The notes under the pieces are model-generated. The model saw only the letters and a program-made list of their open reading frames with translations. It searched no databases and was not told where the DNA came from. 59,741 nt of DNA from NCBI GenBank assembly GCA_964451425.1, contig CAYVIT010000002.1, positions 25,750 to 85,490 of the forward strand, written 5' to 3'. Below, piece after piece: positions 4,440-58,149 of this stretch (the stretch's first letter is position 1; each line of letters begins with the position of its first letter). This DNA comes from an uncultured Pirellulales bacterium. GTDB taxonomy: Bacteria; Planctomycetota; Phycisphaerae; Sedimentisphaerales; Anaerobacaceae. The translations under genes and the position numbers were made by a program.

Positions 4440-4540
4440 TTGAATGAGCCTTCAAGGAATAACAATTGAGTAAGAAATTATTTTCTGTGAGCTTACTTTG
4501 TGGTTTTGGGTGTGTCAAATGTTAAGGGTAGGGGGCGCAT

Positions 4541-4564
4541 AAAAAAACCGCCCGAAGTGAGCGG
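4541..4564 (-). terminator. intrinsic terminator (minus strand)
   Basis: The minus strand reads CCGCTC-ACTTC-GGGCGG followed by TTTTTTT: a 6-bp stem with one G-U pair, a 5-nt loop and a 7-T run. Confidence 0.6.
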
Positions 4565-4978
4565 TATCAGAAGAAGTAAAAAATCCAGGGGGGTTAACAT
4601 AAGGCGATATAACTCAGTACAGCGAGGAACAAGATTCGCCTTTTGTTCATTGTAAACGGAAGCCAGATTTCATAATAAAATTTTGTCATCGCCCTTCTGG
4701 AAGCCAGAACCTTTAAATTCTTAATTCTTAAATTACAATGTTATTATACCCGAAAAGAGTAGTCGAAATCAAGAAAAAAATTATTTATGTGAACATAAGT
4801 ATTTATTATTTAAGACATTACGACAATGGAATCCCGCGATTTTTTTGGGTTGCTACCGAAGCCTGAAATCCGAAAACATATCTCAAATCTTTAGGATATC
4901 AGCCGGCACGATAAGTAATACAGTTATAGGTCTTTTAAATATGGTCACCTGACAAGAGCTAATCAATAATCATACGAC

Positions 4979-6211
4979 CTAAGCTAATTTGTTTGCGGCT
5001 TCTGCGACAAGTCTGCCTATCGGCAGGTGCTGTGGGCAGCGGGCTTCCGCCAGACTAAAATCAGTGCTCAACAGTTTGTTTCTTACCTTGCCGGGGATTT
5101 GAGCAAAAAGCTGTTTTGCTTCTTCATGTTCGCCATAGCTTTTATGGTACATTAAATAGCGCATAATGTCACTGATATAAGGTGTGTCCGGCAGGGCTGA
5201 GTTGCAGATGTTTGCACAGCCGGCACAATAACCATCGCAGGTTGCGCGGGCGTATTCTGTGAGGGCCTGCGTGTCGGCCTGAGTGAGTTTTGTTTTGTCG
5301 AGGGCGGCGGCGACATTTGAACTTAGCTCACGGATGCTCTTCATTCCTACACAGACTGCAGTAAACCTTTTGTCCTCCAGGACGGCTTTTATCTTTGCCT
5401 GCTCTTTGGTAAAACCCCGCTGCAGGAAGTGGTCGGTGAGTTTTTTGTCCTCATCGGTTGTAATCTTCTGGCCCATTCCGAGCGTTTTTATTGCCATAAT
5501 TCCCTTGCCTGCTTTGTGGCAGGCATCAATGGCGGCGTTCAGTTTTTTATCCTGCATTAAACGGAAGTTATAGATTGTCATTACGACTTCAATCCAGTCG
5601 AGTTTGGCGGCGGCGGCAAGGACGTCGGCCATATTCTGGTGGGTACTGATGCCAAAATGCAGAATCAGTTTGCGTTTCCTTGCACTTTGGGCCCATTCCT
5701 TCAGCTCGTTTGTTAAAAAGGCAGGGTTAGAGCACTGATGGTAGCCATAGTACAGGTCAATGTAATCCGTGTTCATTCTCTTCAGCGAGGTCTGAAGGCG
5801 CTTTTCCACATCTGCGACTGTTCTTGCGCCGGATGCCTTGCTGGCAATGAAAAACTTCTTTCGTGCCTTCGGGTTTTTCGCCAGGATTTTACCTATGCCA
5901 AGCTCACTGTTTCCACCTGTATAATTGTGTGCGGTATCCCAGTAATAAACGCCCCACTGAGGAGCTTTTCTTAAAACTATCTGGTTGGCAATGAGGTCTT
6001 GATTTCCGCCCACGCACAGGCAGGGGACCTTAACGCCCGTTTTACCCATTTTTCGTTTGGGTACCTGTGGGTACTTTGGTTTTTTCGCTGTGTCGTTTGT
6101 CTGGCTTTGTGCGGCTATGCTATCAGCCGAAGCGAAAACGGAGCCCAGGCTGGTGGCCCCCACAGTCTTCAAAAAATTTCTTCTATTGATTTTATTGTGT
6201 TTTTCTTTCAT
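4979..6211 (-). CDS. Tat-signal aldo/keto reductase with C-terminal Cys-rich (putative Fe-S) extension, paralog 1 of 4
   Basis: Twin-arginine motif NRRNFLKT. AKR active-site context (WDTAHNY..GNSELGIG, SKASG, STHQN). C-terminal CDGYCAGCANIC ... RCPQHLP. I prefer the ATG at 6211 with GGAG upstream over the GTG at 6229 used by the track. Confidence 0.8.
   Translation of the reverse strand: MKEKHNKINRRNFLKTVGATSLGSVFASADSIAAQSQTNDTAKKPKYPQVPKRKMGKTGVKVPCLCVGGNQDLIANQIVLRKAPQWGVYYWDTAHNYTGGNSELGIGKILAKNPKARKKFFIASKASGARTVADVEKRLQTSLKRMNTDYIDLYYGYHQCSNPAFLTNELKEWAQSARKRKLILHFGISTHQNMADVLAAAAKLDWIEVVMTIYNFRLMQDKKLNAAIDACHKAGKGIMAIKTLGMGQKITTDEDKKLTDHFLQRGFTKEQAKIKAVLEDKRFTAVCVGMKSIRELSSNVAAALDKTKLTQADTQALTEYARATCDGYCAGCANICNSALPDTPYISDIMRYLMYHKSYGEHEEAKQLFAQIPGKVRNKLLSTDFSLAEARCPQHLPIGRLVAEAANKLA
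5029..5113. repeat. 85-nt block identical between AKR paralogs 1 and 2, copy A
   Basis: GCTGTGGGCAGCGGG...GAGCAAAAAGCTG is identical to 6283-6367 at an offset of 1254 nt. The flanking coding sequence is visibly diverged. Confidence 0.85.
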
Positions 6212-6232
6212 CGTATTAAACTCCAACACCAG

Positions 6233-7483
6233 TTAGGCTAACTTGGTAACCGCTTCTGCGACGAGGTTGCATATCGGCAGATGCTGTGGGCAGCGGGCTT
6301 CCGCCAGACTAAAATCAGTGCTCAACAGTTTGTTTCTTACCTTGCCGGGGATTTGAGCAAAAAGCTGCCTTGCTCTATTTTGGTCGCCATAGCTGTTGTA
6401 GTACATCAGATAGCGCATAATGTCACTGACGTATGGTGTGTGCGGTAATGCGGCGTCGCAGATGTGTGCGCATCCGGCGCAATAACCGGTGCAGGTTGCG
6501 TGGGCATATTCCTTGAAAATCTCGATGTCCGTTTGTGTAAGCTCTGTTTTATCCAGGACGGCAGCGACGTTTTTAGTTAAGACAGCGACGTTTTCCATCT
6601 GAACGGGCGCGGCACTTATCCTTTTGTCTTGTAATACAAGTTTTATGGCAGCCTGCTCCGGACTAAAGCCCCGCTGTATAAAGTTACTGACGAGCTTTTT
6701 ATCTGCTTCCGTTTCAATTGCGAGCTTGAATCTGCTAATAGTAGTCCTGCCAGTCGTTTTCATTGCAATAATGGCAATCCCGGCTTTGTGGCACGCTTCA
6801 ATGGCGTCCATAAGTTTAGAATCCTGCATCAGGCGGAAGTTATAACTTGTCATAACCGCATCAATCCAGTCGAGCTTGGCAGCGGCGGCGAGGCAGTTGG
6901 CCATATTTTTATGCGTTGTGAAACCAAAAAACCTTATGAGCTTGCGTTTCTTCGCACTTTCGGCCCATTGCTTTAACTCATTTGTAAATTGGCCGGGATC
7001 GGTTGCTCCGTGCGGGGCATAGTACAAATCAATGTATTTTGTATTCAGTCTTTCCAGGGAGGCCTGAAGGCGTTTTTCGACATCAGCGACCGTTCTTGCT
7101 CCGGAAGCCTTTGTTGCCAGGAACAAGTCTTTTCGGACTTCCGGATTATTCATAAGGTATTTACCGATACCGAGCTCGCTGTTTCCGCCTGCATAACCGT
7201 AAGCTGTATCCCAATATTTAACACCCCACTTAATGGTGTTCCTTAGAACGACCTGGCTATCAATAAGGTTGAACATTGTCCCGAGGCCCAGACATGGAAC
7301 CTCGACGCCGGTTTTGCCGAGCTTTCTTTTGGGCATCTTCGGGGCGCTGGATTCCTGCGGGTTTTTTTCAGTGTTTGAGCTTACCGGCTTTGTGGAGGTG
7401 AAAACAGAACCCAATCCTGCTGCGACTATTGTGCTATCGCGGATAAACTTACGCCGAGTTACTTTGTTATCGTTATTATTCAT
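6233..7483 (-). CDS. Tat-signal aldo/keto reductase with C-terminal Cys-rich extension, paralog 2 of 4
   Basis: Twin-arginine motif TRRKFIRD, AKR motifs (WDTAYGY..GNSELGIG, TKASG, TTHKN), and the tail CTGYCAGCAHIC ... RCPQHLP. Its stop lies about 21 nt upstream of the paralog 1 ATG. Confidence 0.8.
   Translation of the reverse strand: MNNNDNKVTRRKFIRDSTIVAAGLGSVFTSTKPVSSNTEKNPQESSAPKMPKRKLGKTGVEVPCLGLGTMFNLIDSQVVLRNTIKWGVKYWDTAYGYAGGNSELGIGKYLMNNPEVRKDLFLATKASGARTVADVEKRLQASLERLNTKYIDLYYAPHGATDPGQFTNELKQWAESAKKRKLIRFFGFTTHKNMANCLAAAAKLDWIDAVMTSYNFRLMQDSKLMDAIEACHKAGIAIIAMKTTGRTTISRFKLAIETEADKKLVSNFIQRGFSPEQAAIKLVLQDKRISAAPVQMENVAVLTKNVAAVLDKTELTQTDIEIFKEYAHATCTGYCAGCAHICDAALPHTPYVSDIMRYLMYYNSYGDQNRARQLFAQIPGKVRNKLLSTDFSLAEARCPQHLPICNLVAEAVTKLA
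6283..6367. repeat. 85-nt block identical between AKR paralogs 1 and 2, copy B
   Basis: See 5029-5113. Confidence 0.85.
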
Positions 7484-7648
7484 CGTTTATTTCCTTTCCT
7501 GGTAGGTTTCTGATGTAGTTTTTGGTATCTGTCGTGCACAAATTAACGTTATCTGCCTTATTCTTTTATAACTGCTTATCCATACGATATATCATTATTG
7601 TACGTTAGGGTCTCCATGCCGGGATGTATTATTGCAGAATCTCTGAAA

Positions 7649-7996
7649 GGGTCAAGTCATTTATTTTTTGGCCTGTATGTAGTGTAGGTATGTGCGGCTG
7701 GTTATCCTTGTAGCTGTGCTCAAATACGGGATTTGAAAAAGCGCTTAGGCCAGCTTGCGGACTGCTTCAGCGACCAATTTAGCTATCGGCAAATGCTGCG
7801 GGCAGCGTGTTTCTGCGTGCGTGTAATCGATGCGCAGCAGTTTATTTCTTATGCCGGACGGAAGTTTAGCGAAAAGGTTCCTTGCTCTATTCCTGTCGCC
7901 GTAACTGTTGTAGTACATCAAGTAGCGCATAATGTCACTGATGAAAGGCGTGTCCGGCAGGGCGGAGTCGCAGATGTATGCGCAGCCGGCGCAATA
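7649..7996. repeat. segmental duplication, copy A (3' end of AKR paralog 3 plus downstream non-coding sequence)
   Basis: It matches 9143-9490 at a constant offset of 1494 nt. I count about 5 mismatches in 348 nt by eye. Confidence 0.85.
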
Positions 7997-9034
7997 ACCG
8001 CTGCAGGTTGCGAGGGCATGTTCTTTGAGGGTTTCCATATCTTGTTTTGTAAGATTGGTTTTATCGAGGACGGCCGCGACGTTTTGTGCTAAGATACTAA
8101 CATCCTGCATGCCTACACAGGCTGAGCTAAATCTTTTGTCCTGCAATACGGCCTTTATTTTTGCCTGTCCTTCAGTAAAACCTTTCTGCAGGAAATGTCC
8201 AGCCAGTTTTTTATCTTCTTTAGTTTCAATTTTTTCCTGTGGACGTCCCTGAGTTTTCATAGCGATAAGACCTATACCTGCTTTATGGCAAGCCTGAATT
8301 GCATCCTGTAGTTCGTTGTCCTGCATTATCCGATAACTGTAAGTCGTCATTACCACGTCAATCCAGCCGAGCTTGGCAGCGGCGGCGAGGCACTTGGCCA
8401 TATTTTTATGGGTGCTGAAACCAAAAAATCGTATTAGCTTTCTTTTCTTTGCACTTTCGACCCACCGCCTTAAATCATCGGTCAGCTTTGCGGGGTCAGA
8501 TAATCCGTGGCCGACGTAGCCGGAACCTGCCTTTCGGTCCATGATGTAGTAGATGTCGATGTATTTGGTGTTCATTCTTTTCAGGGATGCTTGAAGGGCG
8601 TTTTCCACATCGTTGATGGTAACGGCATCCGATGCCTTGGTGACAAGAAACAGTTTCTTTCGGGCGTCAGAGTGCTTCGAGAAGAATTTGCCTATGCCAA
8701 GCTCACTGTTTTCGCCGGCATAGTCGGGTGCTGTGTCCCAAAGACGGACTCCCCACTGGAAACATTTTTCTAATATTGTCTGGTTCTCAACCAAATTGAA
8801 TAGCGCGCCAAGAGCCAGGGAGGGGACTTCAATGCCTGTTTTACCCAACTTTCGTTTCGGCACCTGCGGATATTCGGGTTTTTGTGCTTTTCCTTGTGCG
8901 TTCGGGTCAGCAGCATTTAGCTCCTTTTCTTCATTGCTCTTGCATCCGTGAAGAAAAGAACTTAGTCCTGCTGCGACCATCGCGCTATCGTGGATAAACT
9001 TGCGCCGAGTTACTTTGTTATCGTTATTATTCAT
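7745..9034 (-). CDS. Tat-signal aldo/keto reductase with C-terminal Cys-rich extension, paralog 3 of 4 (chimeric)
   Basis: The N-terminus MNNNDNKVTRRKFI is shared with paralog 2. The last ~84 aa are identical to paralog 4. AKR motifs are present. Confidence 0.8.
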   Translation of the reverse strand: MNNNDNKVTRRKFIHDSAMVAAGLSSFLHGCKSNEEKELNAADPNAQGKAQKPEYPQVPKRKLGKTGIEVPSLALGALFNLVENQTILEKCFQWGVRLWDTAPDYAGENSELGIGKFFSKHSDARKKLFLVTKASDAVTINDVENALQASLKRMNTKYIDIYYIMDRKAGSGYVGHGLSDPAKLTDDLRRWVESAKKRKLIRFFGFSTHKNMAKCLAAAAKLGWIDVVMTTYSYRIMQDNELQDAIQACHKAGIGLIAMKTQGRPQEKIETKEDKKLAGHFLQKGFTEGQAKIKAVLQDKRFSSACVGMQDVSILAQNVAAVLDKTNLTKQDMETLKEHALATCSGYCAGCAYICDSALPDTPFISDIMRYLMYYNSYGDRNRARNLFAKLPSGIRNKLLRIDYTHAETRCPQHLPIAKLVAEAVRKLA

Positions 9035-9142
9035 CGTTTATTACCTTTCTTGATAGGTTTCCGATATACTTTCGAAGTATCTGCGAAACCACAAATTAAT
9101 AGCGCCTTGGTACCAGTATTTATTGTTGCAAAATTTCGGAAT

Positions 9143-9490
9143 GGGTCAAGTCATTTGTTTTTTGGCCTGTGGGTAGTGTAGGTATGTGCGGCTGGTTATC
9201 CTTGTAGCTGTGCTCAAATACGGGATTTGAAAAAGCGCTTAGGCCAGCTTGCGGACTGCTTCAGCGACCAATTTAGCTATCGGCAAATGCTGCGGGCAGC
9301 GTGTTTCTGCGTGCGTGTAATCGATGCGCAGCAGTTTATTTCTTATGCCGGACGGAAGTTTAGCGAAAAGGTTCCTTGCTCTATTCCTGTCGCCGTAACT
9401 GTTGTAGTACATCAAGTAGCGCATAATGTCGCTGATGAAAGGTGTGTCCGGCAGGGCGGAGTCGCAGATGTATGCGCAGCCGGCGCAATA
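9143..9490. repeat. segmental duplication, copy B (3' end of AKR paralog 4 plus downstream non-coding sequence)
   Basis: See copy A. The identity breaks down abruptly after about 9490. Confidence 0.85.
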
Positions 9491-10513
9491 AGTGCTGCAG
9501 GTTGCGCGGGCGTATTCATTTAGGGCATCTCTATCTGCCTGCGTAAGTTTGGTTTTGTTCAGAACGGCATCGATGTTTGTAGTTAAAAGAGAAATGTTCT
9601 GCATTCCGACGCAGACGGCGCTGAACCGTTTGTCCTGCAGGATAACTTTTATCTTTGCCTGTTCCTGGGTGAAGCCTCGCTTCTGGAAGTGGTCGAGGAG
9701 CTTCTTGTCCTGTTCGGTCTCTACCGGCTGGATACGTCTGACTCCGCGAGAGAAGGCTTTCATCGCAGTAAGACCAATGCCGGCTTTATGACAGGCCTCA
9801 ATAGCAGCCTGCATATCATCATTCTGCATAACCCGGAAATTGTAAAGTGTTGTTATTGCATCAATCCAGTCGAGTTTGGCGGCAGCGGCGAGGCATTTGG
9901 CCATATTTTTGTGGGTGCTGAAACCAAAAAAACGTATCAGTTTGCGTTTCTTCGCACTTTTGGCCCACTGCTTTAATTCGTCTGTGAGTTGTGCGGGGTC
10001 AGACAGGCCGTGACAGGCATAGTATAAATCGATGTAATCGGTATTCATTCTTTTCAGAGAGGTCTGAAGACGTTCTTCGACCTTCTCGGCGGTTATCGGC
10101 CCCCAAAAAATTGCCGTCTTGCTTACGATGAATAATTGTTTTCGCGCCTTCGGATTCTTCGTGATGAATTTGCCTATGCCAAGCTCTGCGTTTCCGCCTC
10201 CATAGTTGTGAGCGGTGTCCCAACAGGTTACGCCGGACTCGAAGGCTTTTCTTAAAACGATTTGCTTATCAGTAAAACTAAAGTCCCCGCCCAAAGACAG
10301 GCACGAAACCTCAACGCCTGTTTTGCCGAGCTTTCGCCTTGGTATCTGTGGAGGTTTAGGTTTTTTTGCTTGTTCGGGAGCATTAGGGTCAATGGTCTTC
10401 AGGTCGTCCTGGCCGGTTATCGCTTCATCCGAAGCAAAAACGGAGCCTAATCCTGCTGCTCCAATAGTCTTCAGGAAATTTCTTCTGTTGATTTTATTTA
10501 GATTTTCTTTCAT
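9239..10513 (-). CDS. Tat-signal aldo/keto reductase with C-terminal Cys-rich extension, paralog 4 of 4
   Basis: Twin-arginine motif NRRNFLKT, AKR motifs (WDTAHNYGGGNAELGIG, STHKN), and the tail CSTYCAGCAYIC ... RCPQHLP. The ATG at 10513 with GGAG upstream lies 20 nt after the polyferredoxin stop. Confidence 0.8.
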   Translation of the reverse strand: MKENLNKINRRNFLKTIGAAGLGSVFASDEAITGQDDLKTIDPNAPEQAKKPKPPQIPRRKLGKTGVEVSCLSLGGDFSFTDKQIVLRKAFESGVTCWDTAHNYGGGNAELGIGKFITKNPKARKQLFIVSKTAIFWGPITAEKVEERLQTSLKRMNTDYIDLYYACHGLSDPAQLTDELKQWAKSAKKRKLIRFFGFSTHKNMAKCLAAAAKLDWIDAITTLYNFRVMQNDDMQAAIEACHKAGIGLTAMKAFSRGVRRIQPVETEQDKKLLDHFQKRGFTQEQAKIKVILQDKRFSAVCVGMQNISLLTTNIDAVLNKTKLTQADRDALNEYARATCSTYCAGCAYICDSALPDTPFISDIMRYLMYYNSYGDRNRARNLFAKLPSGIRNKLLRIDYTHAETRCPQHLPIAKLVAEAVRKLA

Positions 10514-10533
10514 CACATTCAACTCCAAAAAGA

Positions 10534-12273
10534 TTAATTCTTGAGTAACAACTTTCTGTCCATACTTCTTGTCTCGCCTTCGGCGGAGACTCTAACGGCT
10601 TTTTTGCCGCTTACGGGGCATTCGTGTTCGCAGACGCCGCAGCCGATACATTTTTCGATATCCACATAGGGCCTCTGGAGTCGAACTTGGATTTCAATTT
10701 TACCGCCGGCAGGCGGGATTTTTTCGAATCGCTCGTCAGGTGAGATTACGACAGTGTTTTCGGTGTTTGCCGTGATTTTCCTGCGATCACTGCCTCGGAC
10801 AACACAATAATAGTCGCCGGTGGCGAATTTGTCAGGGACGATGGACGTTTCGATTTCTATAGTGTTATCGGTGATTTGTTTTACCGTTAAAATACCATCT
10901 CTTATTGTATTGAAACACTCTTCGGTGTAAATTGCCTTGGGACTTAGGGGGCAGTTTTCCTCGCAGACTATACAGGGCTTGTCCATCGCCCAGGGCAGAC
11001 ACCTGTTTCGGTCAAAGAAGGCGGTGCCGAGCTTGATTGGCCCGGTCTCGGCAAATTCATCCAGTCCGTGTTTTTCGGCGAGGGTAATCGGCCTGATGGC
11101 TGAGGTAGGGCAGACTTGGCCGCATGCAACGCAGTTCAACTGGCAGCCGCTTGAGCCGATGCGGTTGTTGAGGACAGGGGTCCAGAGATTCTCCAGGCCT
11201 CCTTCGATGCCGCCCGGCTGGAGAACGTTTGTAGGGCAGACACGCATGCACTGGCCGCACTTTATGCATCTTTTTAAGAATTCCTTTTCCGCCAGTGCAC
11301 CGGGGGGACGAATGACTTTGTGATACCAGTTGTCGCCCAGTTTGTTACCGAGCCTGACAGCCGGTACTGCAACAATGCCGCCGGCAAGTGAAAGCACAAA
11401 ACCTCTGCGAGAGATGTCCGGGTTGGTGATTTCACCTGCCGGCGAGGGTGTGGTTTGATAGCTAATCAGTTCGTCTTTGCAGTCCTGGCGACAGTTGAAG
11501 CAAAGCACGCATTCACTAATCCTTATGTTGCCGCTGGGTTCGCAGCCGCCTTCGCAGGAGCGCTCGCATAATTTGCAGTTTGAACATTCAGCCTGGTTTT
11601 TGCCGATTCGCAGGATAGCAAACCTTCCGAGGATGCCGAACAATGCGCCGAGGGGACAAATAAATCTACAGTAGAAGCGGGGGATGACAAGGTTGAGGAG
11701 GACCGCTGTGAAGAAAATAAGGAGTATCAACCAACCCGCCTCATAAAAGCGAGGTGTTGCTGAGACAAAGTTAACGCTTCTATCGGCAATGGACAGTAAT
11801 GACTGAAAAGAACGGGTTACCAGCGGTATGGGGTCGAGCAGACTTGTTTGTAAGGTGGATCCGATCGATGGAAAGGCGGCCATAAACAGAAAGAATATGA
11901 GAATGATATATTTTATACACTGGGCCTTTCGGTATTTGTTGAGCTGTATTCTTTTAGCGAGCTTTGTTTTTCGATGGGCCAAATATCCGACGAAGTGATG
12001 CAGTGAGCCGAATGGACAGACCCAACTGCAAAAGAACCGGCCCAATATTATGGTCAATATAACAGTTACGAGGGCCCAGAGGAGGGGCCAGTAAAGTGTA
12101 TGTGTAGTCAATATTGTCCCGATTGCCACCAGGGGGTCGAGCTGCAGGAACCAGTTAACGGGCCAGGAGCGGAGCTGCCAGAATTTTTCTCCTACTGTGG
12201 CGACTATACAGAACCAGACAAACAACGAGAAAAAGAAGGTCTGACTTATGCGTCTGACTGTTACAATTTTCAT
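10534..12273 (-). CDS. integral-membrane polyferredoxin, NapH/NosR-like
   Basis: The N-terminal half has about six TM segments carrying two CX3CP motifs (CSWVCP, CRFICP). It is followed by several ferredoxin-type motifs (CSNCKLCERSC, CIKCGQCMRVCP, CVACGQVCP, CIVCEENCP, CIGCGVCEHECP). I chose the ATG at 12273; a GTG at 12279 is also possible. Confidence 0.75.
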   Translation of the reverse strand: MKIVTVRRISQTFFFSLFVWFCIVATVGEKFWQLRSWPVNWFLQLDPLVAIGTILTTHTLYWPLLWALVTVILTIILGRFFCSWVCPFGSLHHFVGYLAHRKTKLAKRIQLNKYRKAQCIKYIILIFFLFMAAFPSIGSTLQTSLLDPIPLVTRSFQSLLSIADRSVNFVSATPRFYEAGWLILLIFFTAVLLNLVIPRFYCRFICPLGALFGILGRFAILRIGKNQAECSNCKLCERSCEGGCEPSGNIRISECVLCFNCRQDCKDELISYQTTPSPAGEITNPDISRRGFVLSLAGGIVAVPAVRLGNKLGDNWYHKVIRPPGALAEKEFLKRCIKCGQCMRVCPTNVLQPGGIEGGLENLWTPVLNNRIGSSGCQLNCVACGQVCPTSAIRPITLAEKHGLDEFAETGPIKLGTAFFDRNRCLPWAMDKPCIVCEENCPLSPKAIYTEECFNTIRDGILTVKQITDNTIEIETSIVPDKFATGDYYCVVRGSDRRKITANTENTVVISPDERFEKIPPAGGKIEIQVRLQRPYVDIEKCIGCGVCEHECPVSGKKAVRVSAEGETRSMDRKLLLKN

Positions 12274-12319
12274 AATCACACTTTCAAAGCTGTGAAGGTT
12301 TTCGATCTATTGTGATAAG

Positions 12320-13732
12320 TTAATTTCCAATCATTATTTTTCCAAGATGGTACCAGCCGTCATCCTGCTTTCCGGATATAGCAAGTTGGACTTTAGGCTT
12401 ATTGGACTGCGGCTCAAGGATGCCGATTTGCAGGTCGTATTGGCCCGTAGGCATATCAGATGGAACCAGAACAGAGTCATCATAGAGGTTATCACCCGGC
12501 AGCCAGGTTGTGATATCGGCGTTGGTTACCAAGATTTCAGTTTTTTTGTCGTTTTTCAGGCGAAGAGCGAGAGGGAATTTTTTGTAACACGGTGCAACGC
12601 CCTTATTGTCCCACCAGGAAGTGAAAGACAGCTTACTGTTTGGATTCAGTGCTGCCGGGTATGTAAACTTGCGAAGCACAAGTCTGTACCCCATTTTCCC
12701 GAGCCACCTGTTGACGGCAGGCCACCATTCTTTCGGGACCGGTGAGGACTTGGCGTTGAAGGAAGAGATGTGCCATTTGAGGGACTCGTCAATAATATAG
12801 TCCACGTCCCAGCCCATATCCTTCCAGTGCTGCATTACCCAGCATACCTCAAGTGTCACGGGGGCTTTTTTCCAGGCATCTTTAACACCGAAATTGATTA
12901 TTGCCTGCGGATAGTAATCGTTCATGTGCGACCAGTTGGCACTGAATCCTCCCATATCTCCGAGACAATCGACCCTCCAGCCGACGTCCGCACTTGAAAG
13001 GGCGCATCTGTTTGTTTTCTTATCGGTAAGGAGCATGACGAGATGTGTTTTCTTAAAGGAGTCGATATAGGCGTCGACCAGTGCCTGTCTCGTTTTATCT
13101 GTCAATAGAGCAGAGCCTGCCCCTTCGCCCCAGGCACCGACAATAGAAACGTCGACGCTTTCAAGGTCTGGGTGGCCGTCATAGTGTTTGCCCAGGATTT
13201 TTACCATCTTTGTGAAGTGCATAACATAGCGTGGGTCTTCCGGGTCAACCTGCCATTTTTTCACCGGTAAATCTTTTCTCTCGCCGACCATTGCACGGTA
13301 CCAGTCGGGGACATCATTTTCCGTTCCCGTGCCGTATGGGGCGATGCGCAACATAAGGGTCTGCTGTCTCTGGTGAGCTGTTTCGAGGGCTTTATCTATC
13401 AGGTCCCAGCGATATTTGCCCATATTCGGTTCGATGAACTTCCAGTAAATTCGGAAGTACGCTATGGTTGTCATCGGATAATCTTTGTTTTCCAGATTGC
13501 CATCGAATTCCTGGTAAACAATGGGCTTGCCCTCGGTCCAGCGTTTTGCTTGATTTAGGGTGTCTCCGTTGAATCTCTGAAAGGTCATAAAGCCGATTCC
13601 GGGATTGGTGAGGATGTCGTCGATTTCCGTTGGCCGAACGGTAACTGTTTCCTGCGCAAAGACCGAAGTAAAGGACAGGCCTATTAGTATGATTGTGACT
13701 GAGAAGACTATGATTAAACGTGAAATATGCAC
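12320..13732 (-). CDS. secreted TIM-barrel glycoside-hydrolase-like protein (DUF4874/DUF4832-like)
   Basis: Sec signal peptide ending VFAQ. Motifs NPGIGF, WKFIEP..GKY.W and GAWGEG resemble clan GH-A barrels. GTG start with AAGGAG 8 nt upstream. The family name is from memory. Confidence 0.5.
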   Translation of the reverse strand: MHISRLIIVFSVTIILIGLSFTSVFAQETVTVRPTEIDDILTNPGIGFMTFQRFNGDTLNQAKRWTEGKPIVYQEFDGNLENKDYPMTTIAYFRIYWKFIEPNMGKYRWDLIDKALETAHQRQQTLMLRIAPYGTGTENDVPDWYRAMVGERKDLPVKKWQVDPEDPRYVMHFTKMVKILGKHYDGHPDLESVDVSIVGAWGEGAGSALLTDKTRQALVDAYIDSFKKTHLVMLLTDKKTNRCALSSADVGWRVDCLGDMGGFSANWSHMNDYYPQAIINFGVKDAWKKAPVTLEVCWVMQHWKDMGWDVDYIIDESLKWHISSFNAKSSPVPKEWWPAVNRWLGKMGYRLVLRKFTYPAALNPNSKLSFTSWWDNKGVAPCYKKFPLALRLKNDKKTEILVTNADITTWLPGDNLYDDSVLVPSDMPTGQYDLQIGILEPQSNKPKVQLAISGKQDDGWYHLGKIMIGN

Positions 13733-13808: not shown

Positions 13809-14804
13809 TTACACTGTTCCCATTATCGGCTTGAGTGACTCTAAGTCGGTTGTTCCTGCGCCGGCGGTTTGGGCTTTTGCAAGGTAGGGCAGGTCCGCGG
13901 GTTTCAAGTCCAGGAGAGTGCAGCCATAGGAATCCGCAGCTACCATGTCGCAGCTTGCAATGACTGTGTTTGCCCGTTTCAAATCCGACACGGAGCCGCC
14001 GGTCGGGCCGTTGGTCATCATAACTTCGGTACCATCGAGTATGACCAGTGTCGGTTTTACCATCATGGCCAGCTCGGCGATGATGGTGTTGATATCCTGG
14101 TGAAAGATGTTGCGGCGTCCGCCCAACAGGCCATAGAAGTTTTTCATTGTCATTGAGGCGCCGGCCCTTGCGTGGTGTTTGACGGGTGTGATTCCAATCA
14201 GTTTATCGACCTTGGCAAACGGGCCAAAGAAGATAGGCCAATTCTTAATGAGTTTGCCGCCCTCAAGAGTAGTGTGCCTGAAATGATATTCTCGTGGCAA
14301 TATGACCTTGGCACCGGCCTGGCTTGCCGCTTTGCCAACGCCGCTCAACATGAAGCAGCTCGCGGGGTCGTTAATCGGATTGTCGGTAACGATGACCTGT
14401 GCGGCTCCAGCTTTGAGACAGAGCGTTACGACCTGGGCTACGAGTTCGGGCTGGGCAGTGGCGCCGAGCATTGGCGGTGAAGCAAATGCAACATTCGGCT
14501 TTATCGCGACCGTTTCGCCTTCCTTGACGAATCTTTCTATGCCGCCGAGCAGCTCTATCGCTTTGGTAACGGTTTGTTTTCTGTCCGGGCCTTCGACTAT
14601 GCTTATTGTGTCACCGGCTTCGTGGGGAACTGAAAAGTCGGCTAAAGTAACAAGGTCTTTGCTTTTTGCACTGAGTCTCGATGGGCCTTTTCTGTCATAA
14701 AGTAGATAGGAAACTGTACCCGCGGCGGCGATTGAAAGTCCCGCTTTGCCGGCGCGGGTAAGGAGCCGCCTTCTGTTAAAGTATTTGTCGTTTGGATTAG
14801 TCAT
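13809..14804 (-). CDS. Tat-signal DUF362-family protein
   Basis: Twin-arginine motif NRRRLLTRAG. The motifs VAIKPNV and ILDGTEVMMTNGPTGG are typical of DUF362 as I recall it. Its start overlaps the upstream stop by 8 nt (ATGACTAA). Confidence 0.6.
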   Translation of the reverse strand: MTNPNDKYFNRRRLLTRAGKAGLSIAAAGTVSYLLYDRKGPSRLSAKSKDLVTLADFSVPHEAGDTISIVEGPDRKQTVTKAIELLGGIERFVKEGETVAIKPNVAFASPPMLGATAQPELVAQVVTLCLKAGAAQVIVTDNPINDPASCFMLSGVGKAASQAGAKVILPREYHFRHTTLEGGKLIKNWPIFFGPFAKVDKLIGITPVKHHARAGASMTMKNFYGLLGGRRNIFHQDINTIIAELAMMVKPTLVILDGTEVMMTNGPTGGSVSDLKRANTVIASCDMVAADSYGCTLLDLKPADLPYLAKAQTAGAGTTDLESLKPIMGTV

Positions 14805-15798
14805 TGCTCATTGCCTTTGCCTGGCTGAGTTTGTTAATGAGTATTGTTGCTAATTTTTCCGCGTACTGTTGATTCTCTGCCTCGTGAATGCCGACAACAA
14901 ATGGCCCTGTTGCAAAGACAATTTCAGTTGTGTCATAGAAGTCGACAACTTTTCCTTCCAGGGCTTTAGTGATTGCCGGCTTTGCCACGCCGCCGTTTTC
15001 TATTAAAAACTTATGATAGCTTTTAGCTACAAGCCGGGCATCCTGTGGGTCCGGACGTCTGCTGAGGAATGCGGTAATGGTCTCGTCACCGAATTTGTAT
15101 TGTGCGGTAAAAATGTCAGTGAATCCTTCAAAGCCAAATGCACTTGCCAGATATAATTTGTGGCTGCCGGCGGCGAGGTTCTCATGTGGGAAATAACTTA
15201 ACTCAGGGATTTCGGTATCAGCATCAGGCGGTAAATTCGCCTGAATCTTTTGAGCGGTTTCTATCATTGCTTTGAATAACTCGTCCGATTTCGAGGAGGC
15301 GATAAATTCGACATAGTATTTGCCGTGGACAAAATACGGAGCATTGGTAGTTCTATAGCCAAACTGCATATCCGGCAGCATCTCGACATCGGGCCTTTTT
15401 TGTACGCTATAAACGGAAAAAGCGTTTTTGATGTTGGCCATATCAAAGATGAAGAGTTCCATCCATAGATTCTCATCGCTCTTGCTTAAGAATCGGGCGC
15501 TTGAGAGTTTTACGAAGCCGGATTCGATGTAAAGAGGGGCTTTTCCGTTAATTTTTTCATAAAGATTGTCAGCAAGATAGGTTTCTTCAGAAAGTGTTTC
15601 AAAACCGGCAGGGACGAGGGAGGTTAGAGATATTTTTTCCGTCCCCGGGCCTGAGAGGACTGTGCCCACACCAAACCGGGTCATATCGTAGTCGGATTGT
15701 GTTATCAATATGGTAATTGCGATGAGTATGAGAACCACCAGTAAGGAGAGGCCCACAATAGATTCGAGTTTTTTGGGTTTGCCTTTAATCGAATCCAT
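14797..15798 (-). CDS. N-terminally membrane-anchored protein of unknown function, first gene of the cluster
   Basis: A single TM segment (IVGLSLLVVLILIAITILI) is followed by a soluble domain. The ATG at 15798 is preceded by GGAG at 6-nt spacing; the track uses a TTG at 15819. Confidence 0.55.
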   Translation of the reverse strand: MDSIKGKPKKLESIVGLSLLVVLILIAITILITQSDYDMTRFGVGTVLSGPGTEKISLTSLVPAGFETLSEETYLADNLYEKINGKAPLYIESGFVKLSSARFLSKSDENLWMELFIFDMANIKNAFSVYSVQKRPDVEMLPDMQFGYRTTNAPYFVHGKYYVEFIASSKSDELFKAMIETAQKIQANLPPDADTEIPELSYFPHENLAAGSHKLYLASAFGFEGFTDIFTAQYKFGDETITAFLSRRPDPQDARLVAKSYHKFLIENGGVAKPAITKALEGKVVDFYDTTEIVFATGPFVVGIHEAENQQYAEKLATILINKLSQAKAMSND

Positions 15799-15824
15799 AG
15801 CTAACTCCAATAATGGCAATTTAC

Positions 15825-15887: not shown

Positions 15888-15916
15888 ATTATAGTTTCAG
15901 TCTGAATTTTTGTCAA
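15888..15916 (-). promoter_or_regulatory. sigma-70 type promoter, perfect consensus
   Basis: The minus strand reads TTGACA - 17 nt - TATAAT. Confidence 0.6.
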
Positions 15917-16878: not shown

Positions 16879-17154
16879 ATGACTGGATATATACATTATC
16901 TGGCTTTTTGGACGCCGGGTCCGCTTGAACTTGCAGTTATTGCTATTGTCGCTCTGTTGTTGTTCGGCAGGCGGCTGCCGGAAATCGCCCGCAATGTCGG
17001 CAAGAGTATGACCGAATTCAAAAAGGGCATTAACGAAGCCAAGGAAACCAAAGACGAAATCGTAAGTGACGTCCGGAAGGTCAGTAACGACATAGTGGAT
17101 GAAGCCAAGGACGCCGCCGGGCTGAACGAAGACGATACGATGGGTGCAGATTGA
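16879..17154 (+). CDS. tatA: twin-arginine translocase subunit TatA/E
   Basis: TM helix followed by LLFG..LPE..R..G....FK and an amphipathic, acidic tail. AGGAG lies upstream of the ATG. Confidence 0.9.
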   Translation: MTGYIHYLAFWTPGPLELAVIAIVALLLFGRRLPEIARNVGKSMTEFKKGINEAKETKDEIVSDVRKVSNDIVDEAKDAAGLNEDDTMGAD

Positions 17155-17212
17155 TTATTGGTAATTGATAATCCATACAGCCATTTATCAATAATCAGTG
17201 ATCAATTTTGAT

Positions 17213-18247
17213 ATGGGCGAGAGCAATAAGACAGACGACCTTTTTGATTCTACGATGAGTCTGGGCGACCACCTCGAAGAATTGCGGATGCGGATGATTC
17301 GCGCGATTCTTGGGCTGGGTTTATGTTCCATCATCTGCCTGGCTTTCGGCCGTTCCATAATAAGGTTTATGGAAGGTCCCTACGATGATGCAACTGCCAA
17401 GCTTCTGTTCAACATTGATATGGAGTTCCAGGTTGATTTAGACAAAGGCACCATGTCTGAAGGCCTGCGGCAGGCATTCAAGGATAACGGGGCGGCATTG
17501 TCTGCCGATGTGAGGGTTAAACAGAAAGGGTATCTGTTCAGCAGCAGAAGATGGCTGATAGACGACGGTGAAGAGAGCAGATATTCTGTCAAGAAAGAGA
17601 AGGCCAAGGTCAAGGAAGAGGAGGCTAAGTCGAACAAAGAGGAGGTCCGGCTAAACATTTATAAACTAAAGCCGCTCCAGGTGATTGCGGTAGCGGCCGG
17701 TTTTATCAGCTATATGAAGATTGCTTTAATTGCGGGTTTGTTGCTCTCATCTCCGTGGGTTTTTTATCAGTTGTGGATGTTTATTGCAGCGGGACTCTAT
17801 CCGCACGAAAAACGCTACGTTAACATCGCAGCCCCTTTTTCAGCGGTATTATTCGTTGGCGGAGCACTTTTTTTTCTTATAGTTGTCGCGCCTTTGACTT
17901 TGAAATTCTTAGTATCGTTCAATCGGCGAATACTGGACGTAAATTCGCAATTTACCTTTCAGCACTATATATCCTTTGTGAGTCATCTTATGTTGGTATT
18001 TGGGCTGGCTTTTCAAACACCGACGGCCATTTTCTTTTTGAACAGGACGGGCCTGGTTTCCATAGCGGCTCTGAACAAATCTCGGAAGTTTGTTATTCTG
18101 GCCATCTTTATCGTAGCGGCGATGGCTACTCCGCCTGATGTGATTTCGCAGGTAACGCTTGCAATTCCGTTGTATTTGTTGTTTGAATTGGGGATACTGC
18201 TCAGTTACATCTCAAGTCGAAGAAGAAAATCACAGGACGAGAAGTGA
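17213..18247 (+). CDS. tatC: twin-arginine translocase subunit TatC with enlarged first extracytoplasmic loop
   Basis: The motif HLEELRMR is near the N-terminus and PWVFYQLWMFIAAGLYPHEKR follows TM2. It has a six-TM layout. About 100 aa of charged sequence lie between TM1 and TM2. Confidence 0.85.
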   Translation: MGESNKTDDLFDSTMSLGDHLEELRMRMIRAILGLGLCSIICLAFGRSIIRFMEGPYDDATAKLLFNIDMEFQVDLDKGTMSEGLRQAFKDNGAALSADVRVKQKGYLFSSRRWLIDDGEESRYSVKKEKAKVKEEEAKSNKEEVRLNIYKLKPLQVIAVAAGFISYMKIALIAGLLLSSPWVFYQLWMFIAAGLYPHEKRYVNIAAPFSAVLFVGGALFFLIVVAPLTLKFLVSFNRRILDVNSQFTFQHYISFVSHLMLVFGLAFQTPTAIFFLNRTGLVSIAALNKSRKFVILAIFIVAAMATPPDVISQVTLAIPLYLLFELGILLSYISSRRRKSQDEK

Positions 18248-22604: not shown

Positions 22605-23219
22605 ATGGAAGCTTTAACGGAAAAACAGCAAAAGATTCTCAGGTTTATTGAGAAGAGGCTGGGAGAGAACAATCCGCCGAGCCAGCGGGAAATCGCCCGG
22701 CAGTTCGGTCTGGCGCGGAACGCTATTCGTCAGTTCGTAAGCTATCTTAAGAAGAAAGGCTATCTGGTGGATTTGGGAGGCCATCGGGGACTGAGGCTGT
22801 CTAAGGAATACCTCTACAGGAAAAAAGAAAGGGAAGGTGTCCCTATTGTGGGCAGGGTGGCGGCGGGGGAGCCGATACTGGCGGAAGAAAATATCGAGGG
22901 ATATGTAGACCCGGGGGAATTTTTCGGCCAATCGAAAGACAGTTTTATTCTGAGAGTTGCCGGGGACAGTATGGTTGACGAGGGTATTATGGATGGTGAT
23001 TTTGTGGTGGTTGAGCCGGCTTCGACGATTAAGAACGGCCGGATTGGGGTGGTGATGCTGGATGATGAAGCGACCGTTAAGAGGATATATATCCAGCGTA
23101 ACCGGATAGCCCTGAAATCGGCCAACCGTGCTGCGGGTTACAGGACCAGATATATCAAGGGAAGCGACAAGAGTATTCGTATAATCGGCAAGGTGACAGG
23201 CTGTCTTAGAACCATATAA
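22605..23219 (+). CDS. lexA: LexA repressor
   Basis: N-terminal winged HTH (SQREIARQFGL), an Ala-Gly cleavage site (VAAGEP), a Ser (GDSM) and a Lys (TVKR). Confidence 0.9.
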   Translation: MEALTEKQQKILRFIEKRLGENNPPSQREIARQFGLARNAIRQFVSYLKKKGYLVDLGGHRGLRLSKEYLYRKKEREGVPIVGRVAAGEPILAEENIEGYVDPGEFFGQSKDSFILRVAGDSMVDEGIMDGDFVVVEPASTIKNGRIGVVMLDDEATVKRIYIQRNRIALKSANRAAGYRTRYIKGSDKSIRIIGKVTGCLRTI

Positions 23220-23285
23220 ATTAAAGGCAAGAGATGCCTTGCCCGGCCCGGCCAGGGATAACAGGCCGGTTGTGTTTGAATGGGA

Positions 23286-23305
23286 ACAGGTTGTTTTGAA
23301 CCGGT
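23286..23305. promoter_or_regulatory. inverted repeat upstream of umuD (candidate operator)
   Basis: ACAGGTT-N6-AACCGGT, with 6 of 7 arm positions complementary. It ends 13 nt before the umuD ATG. Confidence 0.25.
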
Positions 23306-23317
23306 GATAAGTGCGAA

Positions 23318-23749
23318 ATGAATACGAAGGTCCAGACAGTTTATATTTCGGATTTGTCTACCAAGTATCGGCAGTCGTTGTTTGACGGGAGGGTGTCTGC
23401 GGGGTTTCCATCTCCGGCTGCCGATTACGAAGAGGACAGGCTTGACTTGAATAAGCACCTGATTAGGCATCCGGCGGCGACGTTTTTTGTCAGGGTCATC
23501 GGCGACTCGATGATTGGAGCGGGCATTCACTGCGGCGACCTTTTGGTTGTCGACCGCAGCCTTGAGGCCAGGGACAAGAGCGTGGTGATAGCGGCTGTCA
23601 ACGGAGAGCTGACGGTCAAGAGAATCAGAATCAGGAATAAGAAGATAACATTAGTACCTGAAAACGAGAGCTACAGTGCGCAGGAAATCGGCGAGAATGT
23701 GGAATTTGAGGTGTGGGGGGTAGTGACCAGCGTTATACACGAACTATGA
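23318..23749 (+). CDS. umuD: translesion polymerase V accessory protein UmuD (S24 peptidase)
   Basis: Ala-Gly site (VSAGFPSP), GDSM and TVKR motifs, and 143 aa. Confidence 0.85.
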   Translation: MNTKVQTVYISDLSTKYRQSLFDGRVSAGFPSPAADYEEDRLDLNKHLIRHPAATFFVRVIGDSMIGAGIHCGDLLVVDRSLEARDKSVVIAAVNGELTVKRIRIRNKKITLVPENESYSAQEIGENVEFEVWGVVTSVIHEL

Positions 23750-25002
23750 AAGAGATATTTGCGCTTGTTGATTGTAATAATTTTTATGTTTCCTGCGAGC
23801 GGATATTTAATCCGAAGTTGCAGGGCAGGCCGGTCGTTGTGTTGTCCAACAATGACGGCTGTATTGTGGCCCGCTCCAACGAGGCAAAGGCGCTGGGTAT
23901 CGGTATGGGGGTGCCGGCTTTTGAGGTGGAAAAGATTTTAGAGGAAAATAACGTTGAGGTGTTTTCGTCAAACTATGCCCTTTATGCCGATATGTCCAGC
24001 CGAGTGATGAAAACACTGTCGAGGTTTGCCCCTGATATAGAAGTTTACTCGATTGATGAAGCTTTCCTGAACCTTGCGGGGTTTAAGTGCTCTTTGCGCG
24101 ATTACGGCGGGAAGATTTGTCGAACCGTCAAGCAGTGGACGGGTATTCCGGTGACGGTTGGTATCGGCCGGACCAAAACGCTGGCCAAGATAGCCAACCG
24201 GATTGCCAAACACTCGGGTAATGGGGATGGTGTTCAGGATTTGACCGAGTCTGCTTCTCTGAACGAGATACTTGCTGCAATACCGGTGGAGAAAATCTGG
24301 ACGGTGGGAATCAAGACGACTATAAAACTGAAAAGAGCAGGGATTGAAACAGCACTGGACTTACAAAAAGCAGATATAAACTGGGTCAGGCAGAAGTTTG
24401 GCGTTGTGGGGGTAAGGACGGTATATGAGCTAAGGGGGATGATCTGTTATCCTTTAGAGCAGAATCCGCCTGCCAAAAAATCAATTGCCGTATCGCGGTC
24501 CTTTGGCAAGCCCGTCGAATCTATCGAGAAGCTAAAAGAAGCGATAGCCAGCTATTGCTCAAGAGGGGGAGAGAAGCTGAGGCAGCACGGATTGGCCGCC
24601 GGCTTAATGACGGTCTACGTGACAACCAGCCGATTTATAGAAAACAAATACTTTAATTCCCACACTATAGAGTTTGACGTTGCTACGAGTGACACGATGG
24701 AGCTTATCAGGGGGGCACTGTGGTGCATAGGGAAGTTATATCGCAGGGGCTTTTTGTTTAAGAAGGCGGGGATTGTGTTGAGCGGTCTTGTATCTGAAAA
24801 ACGGATTCAGGGGAATTTGTTTGACAGCGTCGACAGGGAAATATCTCAGCGGCTTATGCAGGCGATAGATGCCGTCAATACCAGGTTAAACTGCCCGCTT
24901 CGATGGGCGGCGGAAGGATTGGGCCAGCCGTGGAGGGTCAAGTTCAACCAGCGCTCTTGTCGCTATACGACCCGATGGGACGAGCTGCCGCCGGTGGCAT
25001 AG
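23746..25002 (+). CDS. umuC: Y-family DNA polymerase UmuC
   Basis: It starts MKEIFALVDCNNFYVSCE, with SIDEAFL and a Y-family layout. The ATG overlaps the umuD stop (ATGA). Confidence 0.85.
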   Translation: MKEIFALVDCNNFYVSCERIFNPKLQGRPVVVLSNNDGCIVARSNEAKALGIGMGVPAFEVEKILEENNVEVFSSNYALYADMSSRVMKTLSRFAPDIEVYSIDEAFLNLAGFKCSLRDYGGKICRTVKQWTGIPVTVGIGRTKTLAKIANRIAKHSGNGDGVQDLTESASLNEILAAIPVEKIWTVGIKTTIKLKRAGIETALDLQKADINWVRQKFGVVGVRTVYELRGMICYPLEQNPPAKKSIAVSRSFGKPVESIEKLKEAIASYCSRGGEKLRQHGLAAGLMTVYVTTSRFIENKYFNSHTIEFDVATSDTMELIRGALWCIGKLYRRGFLFKKAGIVLSGLVSEKRIQGNLFDSVDREISQRLMQAIDAVNTRLNCPLRWAAEGLGQPWRVKFNQRSCRYTTRWDELPPVA

Positions 25003-48442: not shown

Positions 48443-48501
48443 AATTTCACCCAATTCCTTTTCCTCAAAACAATACGTCACTGTTTTCCAAAGGGATTGA
48501 T

Positions 48502-48517
48502 AGGCGTATATACACCT
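48502..48517. promoter_or_regulatory. 16-nt palindrome in PEP-CTERM leader (one mismatch)
   Basis: AGGCGTATATACACCT lies between the predicted promoter and the ATG. Confidence 0.35.
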
Positions 48518-48540
48518 TCGCACCCTCTCTAATAAACTAT

Positions 48541-49685: not shown

Positions 49686-49744
49686 AATTTCACCCAATTC
49701 CTTTTCCTCAAAACAATATGTCATTGTTTCTAAAAGGGCTTGAT

Positions 49745-49760
49745 AGGTGTATATACACCT
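49745..49760. promoter_or_regulatory. perfect 16-nt palindrome in PEP-CTERM leader
   Basis: AGGTGTATATACACCT occupies the same position relative to the promoter and ATG as in copy 1. Confidence 0.4.
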
Positions 49761-49783
49761 TCGCACCCTCTCCAATATCCATT

Positions 49784-57001: not shown

Positions 57002-57077
57002 GATATACTCCTCTACATTATTCCAACACCTTAAATCTCGAACTTCCCTGTGCCTACACATCAAAAGCTATTAATAG

Positions 57078-58071: not shown

Positions 58072-58149
58072 TTTCTTCTCCTTAAAAAGTGATTGATATT
58101 TTCTCCGGGTTCCGTCCCGCTTGTTCTTCTCCATCAATGAAGTATCACA

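Follow-up and report, generated by a model that had tools for sequence, protein, structure and literature searches.

The usual cofactor of aldo-keto reductases (AKRs) is NAD(P)H, which is absent outside the cytoplasm. Glucose-fructose oxidoreductase (GFOR) of Zymomonas mobilis is a periplasmic sugar oxidoreductase that is exported by twin-arginine translocation (Tat) with a permanently bound hydride carrier. A different bound carrier has been described within the AKRs: NphT of Alicyclobacillus cellulosilyticus (PDB 9YEB), reported in 2026, is a nickel-pincer-mononucleotide (NPMN) enzyme in which K200 tethers the cofactor covalently through a thioamide and H144 ligates the nickel (Nat Chem 2026, PMC13524815). 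About 798 NphT homologues carry this His/Lys motif, which canonical AKRs lack, and NphT acts on aldoses, needs no external redox partner and is inactive with NAD(P)(H) (PMC13524815). The nickel-pincer AKRs known so far, first found in 2026, are soluble, redox-neutral hydride shuttles. Here we analyze a 59,741-nucleotide stretch of DNA from an uncultured Pirellulales bacterium, placed by GTDB in the Sedimentisphaerales (assembly GCA_964451425.1, contig CAYVIT010000002.1; hereafter the window), which encodes four AKRs (AKR1 to AKR4) with Tat signals and Cys-containing C-terminal tails downstream of a membrane polyferredoxin gene. We tentatively propose, at slightly less than even chances, that they are exported, cofactor-tethered NphT-type AKRs that exchange electrons through iron-sulfur (Fe-S) clusters.

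The four genes are intact tandem open reading frames (ORFs) on the minus strand: AKR4 (9239-10528; 429 amino acids from a TTG at 10528, or 424 from the likely ATG start at 10513), AKR3 (7745-9034; 429 amino acids, with LHGC as a possible lipobox and, N-terminal to the catalytic His, a 10-residue insertion), AKR2 (6233-7483; 416 amino acids) and AKR1 (4979-6229; 416 amino acids from a GTG at 6229, with a likely ATG start at 6211), which closes the operon. Each of the four has a match to Pfam Aldo_ket_red (PF00248; E 1e-21 to 3e-25) that reaches the C-terminal part of the barrel, and their pairwise identity is 60-65%. A Foldseek search of the AKR4 structural model against the PDB matched AKR14A1 and Kv-beta over about 300 columns (TM-target 0.74-0.78), consistent with an AKR barrel, and returned AKR cores only, with nothing matching the tail. 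The catalytic tetrad, D104, Y109, K137 and H173 in AKR4 numbering (codons at 10217-10219, 10202-10204, 10118-10120 and 10010-10012), is present in all four paralogs, and among 96 relatives the Asp is kept in 91, the Tyr in 94, the Lys in 95 and the His in 80, with Gln in 15. The original prediction for this locus, made from the DNA letters alone, had described four paralogs combining a Tat signal, an AKR core and a Cys tail, and we confirm this for all four. It was also right that the tetrad is present but took the His of a THxN motif to be its fourth member; the tetrad His is H173, in a Y-x-x-H-G context, and the THxN His is an additional invariant residue, H206 (codon 9911-9913).

The best PDB match of the family profile is NphT (9YEB; E 3.6e-37), and every canonical AKR ranks below it. 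We rebuilt NphT numbering from the alignment, in agreement with all 13 residues named in the published description (PMC13524815), and a joint alignment equates H206 of AKR4 with H144 of NphT and K257 (codon 9758-9760) with K200. Both equivalents are invariant in 96 of 96 Tat-type relatives, in all 54 cytoplasmic relatives of Fe-S type, and in each of the window's five AKRs, one of which lies outside the array and is described below. The adjoining positions are mostly conservative: that of T142 is Ser or Thr in 80 of the 96 Tat-type proteins (Asn, Ala or Cys in the rest) and in 54 of 54 cytoplasmic ones, and that of I199 is Met or Ile in all aligned members. The NphT cofactor contacts D47 and H106 are also conserved in the family alignment. 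By this motif test the window AKRs are candidate members of the NphT-type His/Lys AKRs. The original prediction had missed the motif, which offers a concrete candidate for a bound hydride carrier. The likeness to NphT extends from the TIM barrel and tetrad to the loss of canonical nicotinamide contacts. NphT is, however, a cytoplasmic, monomeric and redox-neutral protein of about 290 amino acids without a signal peptide or Fe-S domain, whereas the window AKRs have a Tat signal, a predicted [4Fe-4S] tail and a polyferredoxin in their operon, with no lar genes nearby.

Canonical AKRs contact the nicotinamide carboxamide through a Ser-Asn pair and a Gln. In the window family the Asn position is Thr or variable and so is the Gln position; NphT has Gly and Leu there. 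Because the H206/K257 pair stands where the NAD(P)H contacts have been lost while the proton relay of the tetrad is kept, we favor an NphT-type reading, and we consider it somewhat probable from the alignment that the window AKRs bind NPMN. Covalently bound NPMN would supply a hydride carrier outside the cytoplasm and would explain the need for Tat export. LarA would share with the window AKRs this proposed cofactor and the logic of a Lys tether and a His-nickel ligand; its fold is unrelated, and it carries out intramolecular racemization or epimerization without an Fe-S cluster or export signal.

That the exported enzymes work independently of free NAD(P)H, as originally suggested, is plausible. 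The two routes envisaged for it fare worse. One was a tightly bound NADP in the manner of GFOR, with conservation of the NADP-binding residues named as a check, and the Asn and Gln contacts proved not to be conserved. The other was re-reduction of bound NADP by the Fe-S cluster, and we know of no chemistry by which an Fe-S center passes electrons to NAD(P) without a flavin. This bears on a reading in which the AKRs are exported with tight, non-covalent NAD(P) that is recycled either by ping-pong exchange or through Fe-S. Such a reading keeps the usual AKR cofactor, has Zymomonas GFOR as a precedent for Tat export of a nucleotide-loaded enzyme, and accommodates the extension of the Pfam match into the C-terminal part of the barrel. 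We nevertheless judge it quite improbable, since the residues that hold the carboxamide are replaced and variable, the invariant His/Lys pair marks NPMN binders and is missing from canonical AKRs, and NphT itself shows no activity with NAD(P)(H) (PMC13524815). The likeness to GFOR is functional only, residing in the lack of dependence on free nicotinamide: GFOR is a Rossmann-fold protein of the Gfo/Idh/MocA family with non-covalent NADP, no Fe-S cluster and no membrane partner. Membership in that family was rejected for AKR1 to AKR4, which have no Gfo/Idh/MocA match in Pfam and have the fold of an AKR barrel.

Export of AKR1 to AKR4 by the Tat pathway is very probable, judged from their N termini. 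The twin-arginine motif reads NRRNFLK in AKR1 and AKR4 (RR codons of AKR4 at 10481-10486) and TRRKFI in AKR2 and AKR3, giving a pattern of [S/T/N]RRxF[L/I]K. An RR pair lies within the first 60 residues of every one of 101 Tat-type family members, followed by Phe at +2 in 92 and Lys at +4 in 77, and the consensus of the 101 is [MLI][DSNT]RRxF[LI]K. TAT_signal models and TIGR01409 match the signal regions, with AKR4 among the TAT_signal matches. Genes for the translocase itself, tatA (16879-17154, plus strand; PF02416) and tatC (17198-18247, plus strand), lie divergently about 1 kb past the start of the operon, and synteny between tatC and the operon extends to 17 related loci. Together, the family-wide RR motif, the model matches and the adjacent tatA and tatC support the Tat export first proposed from the four signals. 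The TatC protein has 349 amino acids, including a Lys/Glu-rich insertion of about 100 residues relative to the 208-position Pfam model.

Each AKR ends in a tail of 100 amino acids that is predicted to be all-helical (AKR4 9242-9541, AKR3 7748-8047, AKR2 6236-6535 and AKR1 4982-5281, minus strand). When 1.84 billion representative proteins were searched with the tail only, it was found in 345 clusters at 50% identity, in every one of them at the C terminus of proteins of about 390-457 amino acids or of fragments of these, and it is therefore not a chance feature. The five conserved tail Cys of the original prediction are shared by AKR1 to AKR4 and their close relatives (C344, C348, C351, C355 and C411-P412; AKR4 codons 9497-9499, 9485-9487, 9476-9478 and 9464-9466, with Cys-Pro at 9293-9298). 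Across 43 representatives with 33-62% identity, however, only C348, C351, C355 and C411-P412 (CX2CX2-3C...CP) are invariant while C344 varies, and we replaced the five-Cys site by one with four ligands. Conservation of tail Cys in orthologs, on which the original prediction had made its case depend, thus holds for four residues.

Isolated tails gave no family match in Pfam, Fer4 models included, at E values up to 10. Cytoplasmic AKRs of about 340 amino acids annotated with PF00248 and Fer4_17, Fer4_9 or Fer4_8 were found by way of a metagenome protein, P0173; they are of the COG1453 type and bear out the statement, in the original prediction, that cytoplasmic AKR and Fe-S fusions of this type exist. 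Their tails carry two motifs, C-x2-C-x2-C-x2-C-P and, after about 35 residues, C-x2-C-x2-C-x3-C-P. In an alignment with these, the Tat-type tail retains Cys1 to Cys3 of motif 1, the third usually displaced by one position, together with the closing Cys-Pro of motif 2. In ferredoxins with two [4Fe-4S] clusters, the Cys at these four positions bind a common cluster. The retained Cys are the ligand set of a single cluster, and the tail would therefore be a former dicluster domain in which cluster I survives and cluster II is gone. The window tails lack the two CX2CX2CX2-3CP motifs, with eight Cys, of a full dicluster domain. Among the full-length members of a set of 118 sequences, an RR signal always goes with the single-cluster set, and a signal-less protein of about 340 amino acids always goes with a dicluster-type tail of 8-10 Cys, without exception. 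The alignment with Fer4_17 and Fer4_9 tails supports the view that the window tail is a degenerate 2x[4Fe-4S] domain with a predicted [4Fe-4S]-type site, homologous to the ferredoxin tail of COG1453-type proteins, and agrees with the [4Fe-4S] site first suspected from its Cys spacing.

The uncharacterized COG1453-type fusions are thus close counterparts of the window AKRs, with a homologous AKR core, the same invariant His and Lys, and a tail that can be aligned motif by motif. They differ in having no signal peptide and eight Cys, a number consistent with two clusters, where the window AKRs combine a Tat signal with the four ligands of cluster I. P0173, encoded on a 1.7-kb contig, is the only protein without a signal in which the single-cluster tail occurs. 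It shares 60-64% identity with the cytoplasmic dicluster type in its N-terminal half, is of Tat type in its C-terminal half and contains a Gly/Pro-rich insert; recombination in nature or a chimeric assembly may account for it. In view of this hybrid appearance and the short contig, it was not used as a cytoplasmic variant. In one related locus (L083, 10001-13452), genes for Dak1 and Dak2 (dihydroxyacetone kinase) and for a Fer4 protein come after a cytoplasmic AKR-dicluster gene, a neighborhood which suggests that the cytoplasmic relatives act on a polyol or triose and have a ferredoxin as partner. In eight other loci the AKR is preceded by a DUF1893/TM1506 gene.

Two further readings turn on the tail. 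In the first, no nucleotide takes part: the TIM barrel would hold the substrate and the [4Fe-4S] cluster, fed by the polyferredoxin, would reduce it directly in the manner of IspG or IspH. Enzymes that combine a TIM barrel with a [4Fe-4S] cluster exist, IspG among them, and the loss of canonical NAD(P) contacts is in keeping with this idea. We regard it as very improbable, since with Cys at all four ligand positions there is no open iron site, and the conserved tetrad and His/Lys pair point to hydride chemistry on a bound pyridinium-type cofactor. The second holds that the apparent exported Fe-S enzyme is an artefact, either because the proteins are cytoplasmic or because, once exported, the tail has its Cys in disulfides or bound to zinc. 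The low model confidence at the Cys motif would agree with it. Set against it are the consensus Tat motif in 101 of 101 members, the exceptionless link between signal and tail type, and the homology of CX2CX2-3C...CP to bona fide Fer4_17 and Fer4_9 domains, and we give it the smallest chance of all.

Immediately upstream of the array lies the gene for a membrane polyferredoxin of 581 amino acids (10534-12279, minus strand), whose stop is 5 nucleotides before the start of AKR4. In it, a NapH-like half is fused to a NapG-like half (model matches at E 1e-24 and 7e-20, respectively). The NapH-like half has four strongly hydrophobic transmembrane segments (TM1-4), CX3CP at residues 84 and 204, and two predicted cytoplasmic CX2CX2CX3C motifs. 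Next comes SRRGFVLSL, then a weakly hydrophobic TM5 (Kyte-Doolittle value 1.71, against 1.9-2.55 for TM1-4), then four ferredoxin motifs; the SRRGF/TM5 motif is kept in 36 of 38 orthologs. The same architecture occurs in the PFD protein of the delta-proteobacterium MLMS-1, for which experiments showed that the segment following TM5 is translocated in a Tat-dependent way (bioRxiv 10.1101/111781). By analogy, the poly-Fe-S domain is expected on the side of the membrane to which the AKRs are exported, and we predict that the four-motif NapG-like half is periplasmic. The polyferredoxin that the original prediction had placed beside the exported array is therefore of the NapH-NapG, dual Sec/Tat PFD type, which strengthens that intuition about the neighborhood; as a whole, the earlier interpretation is partly supported. 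NapGH itself feeds NapC and NapAB in nitrate respiration, whereas the order of this host has been described as lacking a respiratory chain, and the only exported redox proteins of this operon are, by prediction, the AKR-Fe-S proteins and a DUF362 protein.

The operon is a conserved one of the Sedimentisphaerales; gene order, compared over 79 related loci, is maintained and runs tatC (divergent), DUF6599, DUF362, sometimes DUF4832, polyferredoxin, one to four AKR-Fe-S genes, further genes and a YdjM-like gene. DUF362 and DUF6599 always precede the polyferredoxin, which is the immediate upstream neighbor of the first AKR in 46 of the 62 informative loci.

From these features we propose the following mechanism. 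The cofactor and one [4Fe-4S] cluster, in the 100-residue tail, would be inserted in the cytoplasm, and the folded AKR holoenzyme would then be exported via Tat. Outside the cytoplasm, it would move hydride between a carbonyl or alcohol substrate and the tethered cofactor. The substrates would probably be sugars or sugar-derived aldehydes, with the paralogs differing mainly in their substrate loops. The cofactor would be recycled in two one-electron steps via the tail cluster, which would swap electrons with the periplasmic NapG-like half of the polyferredoxin encoded upstream. In a fermentative host the reductive direction would be likely, making the system an extracytoplasmic electron sink. 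We infer the transfer from Fe-S to cofactor and the partnership with the polyferredoxin with some hesitation, as possible and a shade more doubtful than the proposal as a whole; our confidence in reaction direction and substrates is low, and the reductive electron-sink role is only a guess. Hints as to the substrate come from the aldoses used by NphT, from a glycoside-hydrolase-like gene in the operon and from the cytoplasmic relative encoded beside dihydroxyacetone kinase genes. Recycling of the cofactor by single electrons is a chemically new step, and it is attractive because a nickel center could bridge two-electron and one-electron chemistry, as NAD(P) cannot.

The same locus can be read without any electron wiring. 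NPMN-containing AKRs could shuttle hydride redox-neutrally between two periplasmic substrates, as NphT does, in a disproportionation or transhydrogenation of sugars; the Fe-S tail would then be structural, regulatory or a handle for folding or Tat proofreading, and the polyferredoxin would serve another protein of the operon, for example DUF362. This is consistent with the lack of an external redox partner in NphT, with the existence of a tail-less Tat-type AKR with the His/Lys motif at 25105-26019, and with distant tail-bearing Tat-type members that have no polyferredoxin nearby. Such an arrangement would not readily account for four cluster ligands that are invariant over 33-62% identity, for the selective retention of one complete ligand set when the second cluster was lost, or for AKR genes tightly behind the polyferredoxin in most informative loci. 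The cytoplasmic relatives, moreover, retain the complete dicluster ferredoxin domain, a typical feature of electron wiring. We consider the redox-neutral reading improbable.

Several observations weigh against exported NphT-type AKRs that are wired through Fe-S. One-electron cycling of NPMN has, to our knowledge, no precedent. Sequence identity to NphT amounts to only 27%, and the cofactor-contacting NphT residues W218, Y219 and G248 are not conserved in the family, though they fall in a loop whose alignment is uncertain; of these, W218 and Y219 are the ones that count here. LarA homologues are common in Planctomycetota. The genes larB, larC and larE were found neither in the 59.7-kb window and its flanking contigs nor in about 1.6 Mb of related loci, a search that covered 91 loci (1.03 Mb) with a LarC-motif scan and 88 loci around cytoplasmic AKR-Fe-S genes. 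In the AKR4 model the core has pLDDT values above 90 and the tail 50-84, with the minimum, about 50, at the Cys motif, as expected for a model built without a cluster. Distant Tat-type members stand alone without any polyferredoxin, and the housekeeping neighbors tyrS, DUF502 and an HldD-like epimerase gene, along with tatC, are syntenic too; the partnership is therefore specific to one clade and could be inherited synteny. Finally, Sedimentisphaerales have been described as strictly fermentative with the respiratory chain missing (PMC11266412), which makes a quinol route through the NapH-like half doubtful.

If the proposal holds in full, nickel-pincer enzymes that are both exported and wired to an Fe-S electron chain would be represented here for the first time, with NPMN acting like a flavin that takes hydride from a substrate and passes single electrons through the [4Fe-4S] tail to a membrane polyferredoxin; we rate this complete picture as rather unlikely. 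The main text of the NphT description mentions no Fe-S fusions, no export or signal peptides and no Planctomycetota (PMC13524815), and no account of nickel-pincer AKRs that are exported or fused to Fe-S domains turned up in the literature searched. Literature searches on AKR, Fe-S and Tat together and on COG1453 gave nothing relevant, the sole mention of COG1453 being in a proteomics table.

The remaining genes of the operon lie upstream of the polyferredoxin on the minus strand. A DUF4832/DUF4874 protein (12320-13732) is glycoside-hydrolase-like, with an N-terminal signal peptide and weak GH42/GH35 similarity. Its gene is found in the operon of only 8 of the 79 related loci, between DUF362 and the polyferredoxin, and may hint at a carbohydrate substrate. 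The DUF362 protein (13809-14804; 331 amino acids) has an RR motif and a hydrophobic N terminus, co-occurs in the operon and is 75-91% identical across metagenome-assembled genomes (MAGs), which exceeds the conservation of the AKRs. Pfam groups DUF362 in one clan with the N-terminal domain of LarA. Neither sequence nor profile searches found a PDB relative. The AF2 model is of poor quality (pLDDT 51.5), and its Foldseek matches were all weak and of a generic Rossmann-like kind (E > 1e-3, TM ~0.2), by which a LarA-like fold is neither shown nor excluded. The first gene of the operon encodes a DUF6599 protein (14797-15819; 340 amino acids) with an N-terminal transmembrane segment and overlaps DUF362 by 8 nucleotides. 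A candidate sigma-70-type promoter (15888-15916, minus strand; TTGACA, 17 nucleotides, TATAAT, 12 of 12 consensus positions) lies 69 nucleotides upstream of the DUF6599 start. At the other end, a terminator-like hairpin with a T-run (4547-4565, minus strand), about 415 nucleotides downstream of the AKR1 stop, is a candidate end of the operon. It falls in a 540-nucleotide ORF-less gap (4440-4978) between AKR1 and the YdjM-like gene. Most related loci have an HldD-like short-chain dehydrogenase/reductase (SDR) epimerase gene of about 330 codons in this position, and it seems to have been lost here.

Similarity among the four AKRs is mosaic. Over the last 85 or so residues of the tail (alignment columns 361-444), AKR3 and AKR4 are 96-100% identical, while the signal regions pair AKR2 with AKR3 (87%) and AKR1 with AKR4 (70%), and similarity is lowest in the linker after the signal and in segments that match AKR substrate loops. 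At the DNA level, 7606-7905 and 9100-9399 are 94% identical and 7403-7521 and 8954-9072 are 87% identical; these repeats span the 3' (or 5') ends of adjacent AKR paralogs and intergenic DNA. They indicate recent gene conversion or duplication in which tails and signal peptides, not substrate loops, were homogenized, and the mosaic pattern of the proteins fits gene conversion among paralogs with diverged substrate loops.

The fifth AKR of the window (25105-26019, minus strand; 304 amino acids) has a Tat signal with a lipobox (TRRQFIK...LSSC), the tetrad and the His/Lys motif, and no Cys tail. On these motifs it is a candidate exported, redox-neutral NphT-like enzyme. Scanning one genome per species, we found 313 relatives of the window AKRs, often several per genome, and nearly all in Planctomycetota MAGs of Sedimentisphaerales or Phycisphaerae type. 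In Planctomycetota metagenomes the AKR-Fe-S clade comprises more than 3,400 proteins, with the cytoplasmic dicluster relatives coming in addition.

Elsewhere in the window, dnaA (46209-47549, plus strand) lies near the point at which cumulative GC skew flattens or turns (about 48-52 kb), and the window probably includes the region of the chromosomal replication origin. Four secreted proteins with PEP-CTERM tags are encoded as a cluster on the minus strand near the window end (47723-48523, 48963-49775, 56432-57064 and 57208-58137). An SOS cassette (22605-25002, plus strand) consists of a gene for a lexA-like repressor followed by one for a translesion polymerase of the ImpB/MucB/UmuC type.

If the cofactor assignment fails, a well-defined and conserved family of AKR-Fe-S proteins, exported by prediction, remains and is worth biochemistry. 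If the whole reading is right, nickel-pincer chemistry would be extended to catalysis coupled to electron transfer, and the function of AKRs in a compartment devoid of NAD(P)H would be accounted for. It would also give a first function to COG1453-type proteins, as ferredoxin-linked nickel-pincer AKRs, and to a polyferredoxin of the PFD type. Fermentative Planctomycetota would then possess an extracytoplasmic module for carbonyl/alcohol redox chemistry that needs no nicotinamide pool. An unrecognized redox route outside the cytoplasm would come to light in abundant anaerobes that degrade polysaccharides and have been regarded as purely fermentative.

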